A DNA stretch of 64,000 bases from Schmidtea polychroa. Its lineage: Eukaryota. The DNA is taken from contig CM097885.1 of the NCBI GenBank assembly GCA_044892525.1, forward strand, positions 1,054,001 to 1,118,000. The letters run 5' to 3'. Below, one piece after another: positions 15,019 to 29,374 of this stretch (positions within the stretch are counted from its first letter, which is position 1; each line of letters opens with the position of its first letter). The notes under the pieces were generated by a model. The model made no database searches. It was not told where the DNA came from and saw nothing but the letters and a program-made list of their open reading frames with translations. The translations under genes were made by a program, and so were the position numbers.

Positions 15019-15254
15019 TCAAAAACGCAAGAGACGCTCAAGCAAATCAAGAATTAAAAAATAAACACATTGCAGAAACAGAATTTATATAAAGTCAAAC
15101 CCTGACTCCTACAACAGGTTCAAGTCTAAATAAAATTCAATCAAAAGCAATAACACTAGTAAGTAGGACTCCAGTAGTAGGATGTGTCCCCGCCAGATCA
15201 GGTCCCCTCCAGATCACATATACCCCCCCCCGGTCTGAAAAATTTTATTTTTTT

Positions 15255-16430
15255 TTTAGAACGATGCCTAATATTTTTAGAACTATTACGTAATCAATGC
15301 CTAATATTTTTAGAACGATGCCTAATATTTTTAGAACTATTACGTAATTTTTTTTAAATTAATTGGTCCAGCGGTGACCTACTTTTTTTCTTCCCAAAAG
15401 TAATGTTCCCGCCAACAAATTTTATTGAACGATACCTCATCTTAAAGCTCAGTCCAAGACCTTTCGAATGATCTATAGGTATCTTATATATCTTTAATAA
15501 TTTTAATGTTATTAACAATTGATGACCACCATCTTTTCAACGTTAAATTATTATTATTTTTCAAAATATTATTAAGTGATCCAGTGGGGACCTACTTTTT
15601 TTCATCCCAAAAGTAATGTTCCCGCCAACAAATTTTATTGAACGATACCTCATCTTAAAGCTCAGTCCAAGACCTTTCGAATGATCTATAGGTATCTTAT
15701 ATATCTTTAATAGTTTTAATGTTATTAACAATTGATGACCACCATCTTTTCAACGTTAAATTATTATTATTTTTCAAAATATTATTAAGTGATCCAGCGG
15801 GGACCTACTTTTTTTCATCCCAAAAATTATTGTTCCCGCCAACATATTATATTGATCGATAGCTTATTTTAAAGCTCTGTGCAAGAACTTTCTAATGAGA
15901 TATAGATTTTTATCATACGATGACTCATCACATTTTTAGATCAAAGTCAATGACTCATCACATTTTTAGAATGATGTCTAATATTTTAGAATGATGCCTA
16001 ATATTTTTAGAATGATTACGTCATAATTTTAGAACAAAGACAATGACTCATCATATTTTTAGAACGATGCCTAATATTTTTAGATTGATTACGTCATATT
16101 TTTAGAACGATGCCAAATATTTTTAGAACGATGTCTATTATTTTTAGAACGATGCCTAATATTTTTAGAACGGTGCCTAATATTTTTAGATTGATTACGT
16201 CATATTTTTAGAACGATGCCAAATATTTTTAGAACGATGCCTAATATTTTTAGAATGATGTCTAATATTTTAGAATGATGCCTAATATTTTTAGAATGAT
16301 TACATCATAATTTTAGAACGATGCCTAATATTTTTAGAATGATTACGTCATACTTTTAGAACGATGCCTAATATTTTTAGAATGATTACGTCATACTTTT
16401 AGAACGATGCCTAATATTTTTAGAACTAAT
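15255..16430 (+). repeat. Subterminal arrays: ~21-bp TTTTTAGAACGATGCCTAATA family plus a 213-bp tandem unit
   Basis: 213-bp units at ~15367, 15580 and 15793; short units at 15255-15345 and 15920-16430. Mirrored at ~27690-28950. Confidence 0.9.
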
Positions 16431-19400
16431 AATTTTGTTTTAATTATCGATTATATAATAATTTAATTTTGTTTAAATCGTTGATTATATAATTTGTTTA
16501 AATCATTGATTATATAATATTTTGTTTTAATTATCGAATACGTAATAATATAATTTGTTTAAATCGTTGATTACATATTATTATTTTTTAATTTTCAATA
16601 TTTTCTTTTAAAATATTAACGCCCATGTGGAAGATGTTATTTTCAAAATTATTATTATTATTATTATTATTATTATTATTATTATTATCAATATTAAAAA
16701 CCTAAAATATTTTTACACACACACACACAACCCATTAACAATTATTTGTAACAATATTCGTGAAAACCTCAAATATTTTTTACACCCATATACAATCCAT
16801 TAAACTTTATTATTATTATTATTATTATTATTATAATTATTATTATTATTAGTGAAAAAACCTTAAATAATTTTTACACACTAAGTTATGGGGTAGAGTA
16901 TTATTATGTTTGCAGTATTCTGTGTTTGCCTTTACAGGAAGTTGTCAATATGGAGCGATAATTTTATACATACATTCTATATACACATACCTTGTTTAAC
17001 ATGGGTGTATATACTCCTAGTTTATCCGACAAAATATTCTGTCCCCCTAAGGGTATTGCTCACAAAGGTACTACTCACATTCAACATGTCGCAAGGGTAT
17101 ATTAATTAGGGTTAGTAAATAAAACTTATCACACACACTATTTAAACGATAAAAATCAAGACAAGAGAGGACAAGGCAAAGTTTATGCATTTATTATTGC
17201 CAGGCCTAATGAGCAGTGACCAAATATCTGTGCCTGAAAGACACGGTGGATATTTGTTCGCGTCCACAAGGGTCGTCTGTGCCTTCCCCAAGTGGGGTCA
17301 GAAGAACCTGGGCATTATAGCTTTCCGTACGGAACATTACGCCTAGCATGGGTAGTCAACTACCAGCACATTCGAAACGTATAATTTCAAAATACATGCG
17401 TCATTGGCACTATAACCAAATTAATTAATGTTTTCACTAACACAAATATATATTTACAGAGGCCTCCCACTAGTTGGATTACAACCGCCCACCACGACGA
17501 TCAGCTTGTAAATATATATTAATTAAGGGATAAAGAGGACCCACCCAACCCTATTATATTTAATTTACAAATTTTTCTCGCTCTTCTGCTGGTATTCTAT
17601 CTCAAAATTATCATCTCCATCGGGCCATTTGGAATACATCTTGCGAATTGGACATATTTCTTAGTTTCTGATGTGGTGTCAACTATCATTGCTAAAATTT
17701 ATATTGATTTAAAAGCAATTAACTTACATTATCTAACATTTTATCGTCACAGGCTTGATAAATTAGGCAACTGTTATTTGTGGTATACTTTTTCAATGTC
17801 ATTTCCCACCATAAAACACAGATACCTAAATATAATATATATATTTTAAAGAATTAATTCATGTCTTACATTAATAATAATATTCTTCAGGTAGTACTTT
17901 ACAATATCTAATTGATAAAACATCGGTTTTTTCCCATTTTTCTTGACATTCGTTGAAAGTTTACATAATTTAAGTCTGATAATTCATGTTGAAGGACACC
18001 CACAATCAGCTAATTCATTTAAGAAATCCCGAACATAGCAATGTTTCACCATTTTGTCTGGTTCATTTTCTTCTATAATTCATGTTTTAATAAGAAATCT
18101 CTAAATCCAGAACATAAGTCATTTAGTGTTTCACCATTTTGTTCATCTTCTTCATAATTATATAATTCATTTTCTTCATTACTAAGTAAAATAATTAAAA
18201 TATTTTAGTAAATTCTTTATTTACTTACTTTATGGATACTAAAACGAAAGAAATAACGTTATATCAGAATTATATTTAAATAATTTAAATTTAGTTATTT
18301 AAACATATTTAAACACTTTAGTTATTTAAGCATATTTAAACATTAATATTATTATATAGTATAATTTTATATAATTTTATATAATATTATAATATTATAA
18401 TATTATGTATTGTAAATTTAATATATCCTTCATTTAATTTTTTAAATTCAAATATTTATAATGAAGATTCTTTGAATTAAAAAATATTCTGTTAGTATTT
18501 CCAGGCAGAAAACAACGAATTCAATAATTAAAATCTTAATTTTCATGTTGTTAGGGTTGTGGCCAGAAGTTAATCGCCATCTAATCGTTTGTTCTCAATT
18601 TCGCTCATTTTTGTTCAAAACATTCAGGTGAGTTGTTATCTGGAAAGTTTCTTTGAGCTCAGTTTTGTTAAAACACTCACGGTATTTTTGAGGGACGTGA
18701 CACTGGAAATAAATTACCAATGGGTGGTCATCCATACATGTTGTTGGTTTGAACTGTTGATTTATTTTAGAAATATGTATATTAAAAACATTTAAGGTAT
18801 CATTCAGTAAAATAATATAGTATTTTTGAGTATTTTTAGTTAATTTATAAATAACAGTATTTTGATATATCAATAAAGACCATATACTCCTAGTTTATCC
18901 GACAAAATATTCTGTCCCCCTATGGGTATTGCTAGCAAGGGTACTGGTCACACTCAACAAGACGCAATATTAATCATTTAGAAATTCTTAGGTAATTTAG
19001 TGAGATGATCGTGAATATTTTAAATGTAACTTTACACTTATATCGAGCGACTAATTTATTGGTTAACTTTGTAGTCATTTAAAGCAAAAATTAATTTATT
19101 CATCTAATGTTCGTTACAATAGATAATAATATGAGAAAAACATGGTCATTATTCATTGATAATTTTAAATTCTTTATCATTTGGAGTAAATTTGTTTGAG
19201 GCAAAAATAATTAAAGGAGTCATAATAGAAATATGGTTATCATTTATCCAATTAAGGAGCCTATTATTTAGAAATATATATTATAAAATAACAATTATTT
19301 TCTAATTTAATTAGATGATCATTAGACGTAATATATCTTTGCGAGAAATTTAAGATGTTTGAGTAACCAAAACATGGACATTTTGTGCGATAAATTTATG

Positions 19401-27689: not shown

Positions 27690-28950
27690 TATTAGTTCTA
27701 AAAATATTAGGCATCGTTCTAAAAGTATGACGTAATCATTCTAAAAATATTAGGTATCGTTCTAAAAGTATGACGTAATCATTCTAAAAATATTAGGCAT
27801 CGTTCTAAAAATATTAGGCATCGTTCTAAAATTATGATGTAATCATTCTAAAAATATTAGGCATCATTCTAAAATATTAGACATCATTCTAAAAATATTA
27901 GGCATCGTTCTAAAAATATTTGGCATCGTTCTAAAAATATGACGTAATCAATCTAAAAATATTAGGCACCGTTCTAAAAATATTAGGCATCGTTCTAAAA
28001 ATAATAGACATCGTTCTAAAAATATTTGGCATCGTTCTAAAAATATGACGTAATCAATCTAAAAATATTAGGCATCGTTCTAAAAATATGATGAGTCATT
28101 GTCTTTGTTCTAAAATTATGACGTAATCATTCTAAAAATATTAGGCATCATTCTAAAATATTAGACATCATTCTAAAAATAATAGACATCGTTCTAAAAA
28201 TATTTGGCATCATTCTAAAATATTAGACATCATTCTAAAAATGTGATGAGTCATTGTCTTTGTTCTAAAAATGTGATGAGTCATCGTATGATAAAAATCT
28301 ATATCTCATTAGAAAGTTCTTGCACAGAGCTTTAAAATAAGCTATCGATCAATATAATATGTTGGCGGGAACAATAATTTTTGGGATGAAAAAAAGTAGG
28401 TCCCCGCTGGATCACTTAATAATATTTTGAAAAATAATAATAATTTAACGTTGAAAAGATGGTGGTCATCAATTGTTAATAACATTAAAACTATTAAAGA
28501 TATATAAGATACCTATAGATCATTCGAAAGGTCTTGGACTGAGCTTTAAGATGAGGTATCGTTCAATAAACTTTGTTGGCGGGAACATTACTTTTGGGAT
28601 GAAAAAAAGTAGGTCCCCACTGGATCACTTAATAATATTTTGAAAAATAATAATAATTTAACGTTGAAAAGATGGTGGTCATCAATTGTTAATAACATTA
28701 AAATTATTAAAGATATATAAGATACCTATAGATCATTCGAAAGGTCTTGGACTGAGCTTTAAGATGAGGTATCGTTCAATAAAATTTGTTGGCGGGAACA
28801 TTACTTTTGGGAAGAAAAAAAGTAGGTCACCGCTGGACCAATTAATTTAAAAAAAATTACGTAATAGTTCTAAAAATATTAGGCATCGTTCTAAAAATAT
28901 TAGGCATTGATTACGTAATAGTTCTAAAAATATTAGGCATCGTTCTAAAA
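27690..28950 (-). repeat. Mirror subterminal arrays of the right TIR (a few extra short units)
   Basis: Reverse complement of 15255-16430. Confidence 0.9.
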
Positions 28951-29374
28951 AAAAAATAAAATTTTTCAGACCGGGGGGGGGGTATATGTGATCTGGAGGG
29001 GACCTGATCTGGCGGGGACACATCCTACTACTGACTCCAACCCACTTTCAAGGTCATGAAATATGTCCAGATCAAATATAGGTCAATTGAATCATTTATT
29101 TTTAAATTAACATTTTATTTATTTACTTCTTTTTAATTTTTTCTTTTTAATTATATTAATTAATTATTTTATTTTGTTTTATTTTAATTACTTACTTTAG
29201 TTAATTTTTAATTTATTACATTAATTAATTTCTTAGTTTATTAATATTTTATTTTAATTACTTACGCCATTTAAATATTATTATTATTATTATTATTATT
29301 ATTATTATTATTATTATTATTATTAATATTATTATTATTATTATTATTATTATTATTATTTATTTTATTTATTT

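Follow-up and report, generated by a model that had tools for sequence, protein, structure and literature searches.

Transposons of the Maverick/Polinton superfamily, which usually occur at low copy number, begin with 5′-AG, end with CT-3′ and are flanked by a 6-bp target-site duplication. The accessible parts of the literature provide a general description of the group (PMC6431247), report a Maverick with a 6-bp target-site duplication and a terminal inverted repeat of 584 bp (PMC3014272) and propose a model of excision, replication by the protein-primed DNA polymerase pPolB and integration (10.64898/2026.07.28.741278). The longest Maverick terminal repeats that we found in print are those of butterfly polintons, which are about 2 kb long and gene-bearing according to the available portion of that report (10.1101/2025.02.07.637071). 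Here, we analyzed a stretch of 64,000 nucleotides from Schmidtea polychroa (assembly GCA_044892525.1, contig CM097885.1, positions 1,054,001 to 1,118,000 of the forward strand), hereafter the window, in which positions are counted from the first letter. The element at 15173-29032, named W, works like a non-autonomous transposon that rides on Maverick helpers, and it resembles a snap-back defective genome. With a probability that we place at roughly 70%, W is a non-coding, near-palindromic, non-autonomous Maverick/Polinton derivative that was mobilized in trans and is copy-back in origin. The high-copy, gene-less, near-perfect palindromic Maverick satellite to which it belongs is real, and the interpretation given in a preliminary description of the window proved to be largely right.

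Other systems with inverted-repeat architectures offer further points of comparison. Miniature inverted-repeat transposable elements (MITEs) are typically under 1 kb. Incomplete particles of adenovirus contain genomes with long inverted repetitions, and the deletion forms of the yeast killer plasmid pGKL1 are hairpin derivatives of protein-primed linear plasmids. The ends of Foldback and Galileo elements belong to a P/MULE-type transposase family that makes a longer target duplication. According to its abstract, the terminal repeats of Galileo are long and internally repetitive (PMC3573991), and snap-back and copy-back defective viral genomes are defined in a review, here taken from its accessible part (PMC13506859). 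No fold-back or palindromic Maverick derivative was found in the literature outside subscription journals, Repbase reports and preprint supplements.

W is 13,860 bp long, its first bases being AGTAGT and its last ACTACT, and the hexamer GACTCC stands on either flank (15167-15172 and 29033-29038). Its ends, AGTAGTAGG.../...CCTACTACT, and the length of its target-site duplication are both those of the Maverick/Polinton superfamily. The arms were delimited by inverted-repeat detection and self-BLAST and were compared by global alignment after reverse complementing one of them. The left arm (15173-20939, + strand), which opens with AGTAGTAGGATGTG, spans 5,767 bp, and the right arm (21635-29032, − strand), which closes with CCTACTACT, spans 7,398 bp. 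Between them lies a unique, AT-rich spacer of 695 bp (20940-21634), which is the loop of the fold-back; owing to the symmetry of the arms, it has no defined orientation. Together, the inverted repeats make up 95% of W. The alignment of the two arms contains 12 mismatches across the 5,767 bp of the left arm, together with 62 + 21 gap columns that fall in tandem repeats. An inverted repeat of 5.8 kb at 99.8% identity cannot have originated by chance. The termini, the hexamer duplication, the arm and spacer lengths and the share of inverted repeat were all as given in the preliminary description.

The difference in length between the arms involves a repeat-rich segment of 1,546 bp (25928-27424) that the global alignment places in the right arm only. 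Runs of (ATT)n delimit this segment on both sides, and only one run of this kind is found in the left arm, which indicates that the left arm lost the segment through a simple deletion between microsatellites. The segment belongs to the family, since an older fragment at 10.7-11.6 kb of the window carries it too.

The genome (781 Mb in 1,012 contigs) was searched with different parts of W. The first 70 bases gave 40 scored matches (all with E ≤ 5.4e-21) of 945 first-look candidates, and many of the matches to the terminal 70 bases occur in plus/minus pairs that are 9-24 kb apart. Ten of these terminal-pair loci (A to J) were fetched. Five (A, B, C, H and J) are fold-backs with the inner arm and spacer of W, four (D, E, F and G) are elements of ~16 kb with terminal repeats of ~1.3 kb, and all but locus I (9 of 10) have a private, perfect 6-bp duplication. 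Three more loci (K, M and N) were picked solely by the spacer, and all three are fold-backs, the duplication of K being CATTAA. The seven fold-back copies for which both ends were seen (W, A, B, C, H, J and K) range from 9.3 to 17.7 kb, and their perfect 6-bp duplications differ in 7/7 cases. Because other copies have different duplications, GACTCC is not part of the element. The preliminary description had proposed a search with the terminal 70 bp for copies with other duplications, which were indeed recovered, and flanks common to all copies were not seen.

The abundance of the family was estimated from 30-mers that span the junctions between arm and spacer. With up to two mismatches tolerated, the left junction matched the genome 379 times and the right junction 421 times, on all large contigs, and the reversed-pattern controls gave 0 matches. 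In 40/40 scored genome matches, the spacer itself is conserved from end to end at 99% identity or more. A further copy, Q, is 97% identical to W and has the 1.5-kb segment in both arms. W is a member of a dispersed fold-back family of ~400 copies, for which we estimate a total of ~5 Mb at ~13 kb per copy. The identical junctions in ~400 dispersed copies indicate that the fold-back arose once and then spread as a unit. The earlier reading of W as a defective genome is thus to be qualified, in that W belongs to a family of ~400 copies with a fold-back of single origin and is not a solitary element.

The four ~16-kb elements are autonomous Mavericks. They share with W solely its outer ~1.5 kb, at 92-95% identity (over about 520 bp or more), and all four have perfect and differing 6-bp duplications. 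The terminal 40 bases of copy G are those of W (40/40). Copy D encodes a polymerase (DNA_pol_B_2, E 4.9e-28) that is split over two overlapping frames, an integrase with rve and Chromo domains, a Pox_A32-type ATPase and a TBP-domain protein. Copy G has an unbroken open reading frame (ORF) of 1,388 amino acids (aa) for the polymerase, with the DNA_pol_B_2 match (E 6.3e-28) on the C-terminal 788 aa, as well as an integrase and an ATPase. Since elements that share the ends of W carry genes for pPolB and an rve integrase, these ends are those of Mavericks/Polintons and of no other transposase family. An autonomous helper with the same ends, for which a search had also been proposed, was thus found in D and G, and nothing pointed to the ends of a non-Polinton transposase family. 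When the genome was searched with the polymerase gene, 57/57 scored matches, of 18,280 loose first-look candidates, were at least 98% identical, and most of them are open frames of about 1,388 aa. To judge from these sequences, coding-competent Maverick partners with matching ends are apparently abundant in the genome. By the same count of 57/57 polymerase matches, the Maverick population of this genome is very large and very young. It was also observed that the right terminus of copy G (L021/L022) has one ACT unit more than the left, followed by the duplication GATAGT. A variable number of AGT units at the termini would suit the slide-back start of protein-primed synthesis, a mode of initiation known from phage and adenovirus work.

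The Maverick-derived terminal region of the left arm (15173-16700, + strand) is identical over its first 40 bp to the end of copy G, and it includes tandem repeats with units of 213 bp (15358-15905) and 21 bp (16053-16426). The corresponding region of the right arm (27425-29032, − strand) is defined by homology to the ends of the autonomous copies and includes the 21-bp (27695-28242) and 213-bp (28299-28846) repeats. For these outer 1.5 kb, BLAST gives an identity between the arms of only 93%, a value that under-reports the true identity because the 213-bp and 21-bp tandem repeats are mis-registered.

As had been claimed, W has no credible ORF. There are nine ORFs of at least 60 aa, the longest of which (98 aa) lies within a trinucleotide microsatellite. 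A Pfam scan of the six distinct ORFs gave nothing better than E 0.024, and an Rfam scan of W gave no match. W therefore does not have the pPolB and integrase of its own that characterize autonomous members. A polymerase remnant was undetectable in the interior of the arm (best E 4.6, versus 1.3 for a shuffled control).

The origin of this arm interior was explored by comparison with copies D-G. The 4.3-kb interior has no match of at least 300 bp in these four copies, and a protein similarity search of the interior found none either. Sensitive blastn of the interior and spacer against D-G found a motif of ~90 bp alone. This motif starts with TATATAC, has 48 invariant columns over seven copies and, in the autonomous Mavericks, is located at the inner edge of each terminal repeat. 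Sensitive blastn and alignment place its copies in the left arm of W at 17008-17099 (+), at 18882-18961 (+) and, inverted, at 20686-20777 (−). The right arm has the mirror images of these three, and two additional copies are present in its extra segment (26716-26835 and 27057-27155). The one lead to the origin of the interior is the spacer-proximal 650 bp, which shows patchy similarity to sequence that precedes a divergent polymerase gene of the window's second palindrome. The similarity between 20200-20846 and 41966-42783 breaks up into four colinear blocks, each 47-140 bp long and 78-88% identical, and is mirrored at 45151-44334. The homology noted earlier between the arms (~20200-20660) and ~41960-42640 is real, though patchy. 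As a separate observation, the gene for the TBP-domain protein of copy D lies at L015:2325-2789 on the − strand (PF00352, E 2.8e-15) and has matching 159-aa frames in E, F and G; a link between this protein and the TATATAC-starting motif of the terminal repeats and fold-back arms is a mere thought.

The two arms of a copy were then compared across the family. Arm-to-arm divergence is 0.09% in M, 0.15% in A, 0.20% in B, 0.21% in W and 0.35% in H, and it reaches 2.4% in C, 4.1% in N, 5.7% in J and 7.4% in K. Between copies, the same sequence is 88-99% identical (up to about 12% difference). A maximum-likelihood tree of a 1.6-kb segment was built from the 18 arms of nine copies (1,638 columns). 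The arms are identical in A and M and are sisters at 100% support in B and H, and the arms of W fall in one clade with the left arm of N (support 95/96). The private branches, 0.012-0.017 long, correspond to about 20-28 changes that are found in both arms of one copy alone. Together with the single origin of the fold-back, these private changes common to both arms indicate that one arm has repeatedly served to correct or to rebuild its partner. Within young copies (0.09-0.35%), the arms evolve in concert, and their homogenization may take place either while the element replicates or in place, within the chromosome.

Homogenization in place is the core of the alternative that survives best. In this explanation, the same family is inserted by the integrase and there is no special replication; the palindrome is copied as ordinary DNA, or is merely cut and pasted, and gene conversion from arm to arm within the chromosome keeps the arms alike. 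Such conversion takes place in the large palindromes of sex chromosomes. The pattern in K fits this explanation, since the 1.7 kb adjoining the spacer contains 7 mismatches only and the outer arm differs by 5-10%, as if conversion had spread from the center. Moreover, the chimeric arms of K and N imply that identity at insertion is not required, and large arm-specific indels persist in arms that are otherwise identical (1,546 bp in W, 719 bp in H and 215 bp in A). The ~400 dispersed copies, however, require some replicative step, and arms that are 2.4-7.4% apart in C, J, K and N show that conversion in place is not reliably effective. We therefore regard conversion without special replication as a possible but rather unlikely account of the family.

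Evidence on how such palindromes may arise comes from a second type of fold-back in the same genome. Four of the 57 polymerase matches lie in divergent inverted pairs, 4.9-6.4 kb apart. One of these, type R (L037/L038; G000:C1:260969751-260981867), is a palindrome of 12,117 bp that has no spacer and is flanked by the duplication GAGACT. It consists of two inverted copies of the polymerase-gene end of G (about 10093/10143 to 15003) and has two open polymerase frames of 1,387 aa. The alignment of the arms shows 8 mismatches in 6,055 columns, 7 of which are at the very center. Upstream of the polymerase gene is a 57-bp tandem array, within which the axis of R is found. Every unit of this array holds a perfect 10-bp palindrome, TGCAGCTGCA, and the strand switch in R is at one such unit. 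Two other pairs (L039 and L040) have their axes in the same 57-bp array and may either have arisen independently or descend from a single event; the fourth stretch fetched has no axis. As read from its sequence, R is built as the product of a copy-back or snap-back error would be, and it has been integrated with a normal 6-bp duplication. An older palindrome of ~11 kb is present in the window itself (~38003-49156), around a center of 531 bp (43293-43823), and its arms contain divergently oriented polymerase fragments that are about 50% identical to the polymerase of G. Extra nested inversions were observed in this palindrome near 40050 and 47030.

In the explanation that we favor, the trans-mobilized derivative of copy-back origin, the helper integrase would bind the common ends and insert the whole palindrome, giving the 6-bp duplication, and the protein-primed polymerase of the helper would copy the palindrome from its ends. 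We infer these roles from the known biology of the group, as described in the accessible parts of PMC6431247 and 10.64898/2026.07.28.741278. The palindrome would have originated when a strand folded at a short inverted repeat and was copied back to its end, an origin that is suggested for W by the presence of type R in the same genome. A single-stranded or cruciform form would pair arm with arm, and mismatch correction or re-templating would then keep the arms alike. The preliminary description had W replicated and integrated in trans by a helper: matching pPolB and integrase helpers do exist, and replication by pPolB is what we would expect of them. It also had W as a defective copy of the helper, which holds for the outer 1.5 kb (92-95% identity to D-G) and not for the 4.3-kb interior, which is unmatched in the sampled copies.

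Several observations weigh against this explanation. The 4.3-kb interior and the spacer are without counterpart in the four sampled autonomous copies, the ~90-bp motif excepted, and helper-like descent is thus apparent for the outer ~1.5 kb only and not for ~70% of each arm. The tree fails to separate the arms of W from the left arm of N (support 85/0). The two arms of K and those of N come from different lineages (7.4% and 4.1% divergence); the left arm of N groups with W and its right arm is found elsewhere in the tree. These chimeric arms indicate that arms are not always re-made from each other. In M and N, two of the three copies sampled by the spacer, the first 120 bases of W found no end within 8 kb of the spacer. 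Locus I (G000:C2:77648286-77671905; L026-L028) is a palindrome of 23.6 kb with Maverick ends and no target duplication, whose two outer stretches of 7.1 kb, 100 bp of flank included, are reverse complements at 99.3%. A palindrome that reaches into host DNA has either a chromosomal origin or an assembly problem behind it, and locus I shows that palindromes of other origin are also present in the assembly. Finally, when a 761-base stretch over the left junction was compared with assembled contigs of public runs, the contigs at this junction were unitigs of 60-200 bases, which can neither bridge the arms nor indicate that they are absent, and no long read across the locus, empty site or extrachromosomal form was seen. 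One 200-base contig, from run X14, matches 14995-15173 and continues with 21 letters unlike W; it is compatible with an empty site, and no inference is drawn from it.

A more far-reaching possibility is that an endogenous polintovirus is currently active and that W and its relatives are its heritable snap-back defective genomes, formed by copy-back at palindromes and propagated through hairpin intermediates. Copy-back at short palindromes would arise during protein-primed replication, the single strand would snap into a hairpin in which the firing of one origin copies the whole molecule, and each cycle would correct or re-template one arm from the other. For the time being, we treat this proposal as tentative and would not expect it to hold in full.

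The remaining explanations fare far worse. It is very improbable that a false palindrome was produced during assembly, whether by a fold-back chimera among the reads or by the collapse of a repeat. The public-run data, which consist of short unitigs, and the continuation of the palindrome of locus I into its flanks would be in line with such an artifact, but the same junctions are found ~400 times on all large contigs, and private perfect 6-bp duplications and private arm-specific indels distinguish the copies that were examined. Hardly any room is left for two head-to-head insertions of Maverick ends, or for a chromosomal inverted duplication after insertion, in which the palindrome was never mobile as a unit: nested and rearranged Maverick debris is plentiful in the window, but the duplication flanks the whole unit, and identical arm-spacer junctions occur in ~400 copies at unrelated sites. 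An equally slim chance attaches to another fold-back group, like Foldback or Galileo of Drosophila and Maverick-like at the tips only, which would account for long inverted non-coding arms with internal tandem repeats and a central loop, but not for an outer 0.5-1.5 kb that matches the terminal repeats of pPolB/integrase elements at 92-95% identity, nor for a 6-bp duplication in every copy.

The comparison with described systems can now be made in full. With autonomous Mavericks/Polintons, the fold-back elements have in common the 6-bp duplication, the AG...CT termini and terminal repeats that are alike at 92-95%. They differ in that W is gene-less, in that inverted repeat makes up 95% of W versus a few hundred bases, and in the number of copies (~400). 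Butterfly polintons, in the portion of the report available, are like W in having enlarged inverted ends that duplicate internal sequence (10.1101/2025.02.07.637071). Unlike W, they are described there as keeping a full unique gene core and duplicating only the hexon and adenain genes, whereas the repeat of W takes in nearly everything and type R duplicates the polymerase gene.

Snap-back and copy-back genomes, as defined in the accessible part of the review, are similar in being palindromes derived from one genome end that depend on a helper (PMC13506859). Type R fits this definition exactly, as each of its arms corresponds to the end of an autonomous copy that bears the polymerase gene, and W matches a helper end over its outer ~1.5 kb only. 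In contrast with defective genomes, which are transient products of infection, the elements reported here are inherited as integrated DNA and have been amplified in the germline. The nearest mechanistic parallels may be the incomplete genomes of adenovirus and the hairpin forms of yeast linear plasmids. In the hairpin forms of pGKL1, too, a protein-primed replicon persists as a fold-back of one end; these are, however, cytoplasmic plasmids that do not integrate.

Foldback and Galileo of Drosophila share with W the long, internally repetitive inverted arms (for Galileo, PMC3573991), the loop and the predominance of non-coding copies. They differ in transposase superfamily and duplication length and are not known to be related in sequence to Maverick ends; W has Maverick ends and a 6-bp duplication. 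As in MITEs, the copies are non-coding, have ends in common with an autonomous partner, outnumber that partner per subfamily and are probably mobilized in trans. Unlike MITEs, whose size is in the hundreds of bases, W measures 13,860 bp, and the fold-back family, at 9-18 kb, comes near the 16 kb of its presumed helper.

The surroundings of W contain further remains of mobile elements. An older, degraded one-arm fragment of the same family occupies 10623-15019 (+ strand), with 78-96% identity to 16587-19578 and to the extra segment of the right arm. This fragment is directly left of the insertion, and W has therefore landed beside an older relative. To the right, a tandem array with a unit of 2,320 bp and three full units extends over 29437-36852, and each unit includes a short Maverick polymerase fragment (aa ~1166-1279 of the 1,324-aa frame of copy F). 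At 3486-5721, two 465-aa frames overlap on opposite strands (3486-4883, minus; 4324-5721, plus). Reverse-transcriptase matches were obtained for the two frames, together with a weak GIY-YIG match for one of them, and the region has the appearance of two Penelope-like retroelement copies placed head to head. A frame of 1,096 aa at 60408-63698 (− strand) has Ulp1-type protease, reverse transcriptase and zf-RVT domains, and a long trinucleotide array (59725-60342) adjoins it.

The replication and movement of Mavericks/Polintons have never been directly shown, and the model of single-strand excision and protein-primed replication is still a proposal, according to the accessible part of the work in which it is set out (10.64898/2026.07.28.741278). 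The present genome is a natural experiment in this respect, with hundreds of integrated palindromic derivatives whose arms evolve in concert and one fold-back type in which the turning point is mapped to a 10-bp palindrome. The features of these palindromes yield testable predictions, namely hairpin intermediates, copy-back errors and dependence on a helper. Should the proposal of heritable snap-back genomes be true, the divergence of the arms would date each insertion, much as the divergence of long terminal repeats does in retroelements, and the family would live as a hyperparasite on its helper. Transcripts that read through an element would then be perfect hairpin RNAs of 5.8 kb, which could feed small-RNA silencing of all Mavericks with the same ends. 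As the copy number of the family demonstrates, Mavericks are able to spawn a satellite of about 400 copies, and this family may supply long hairpin RNA against its own helpers.

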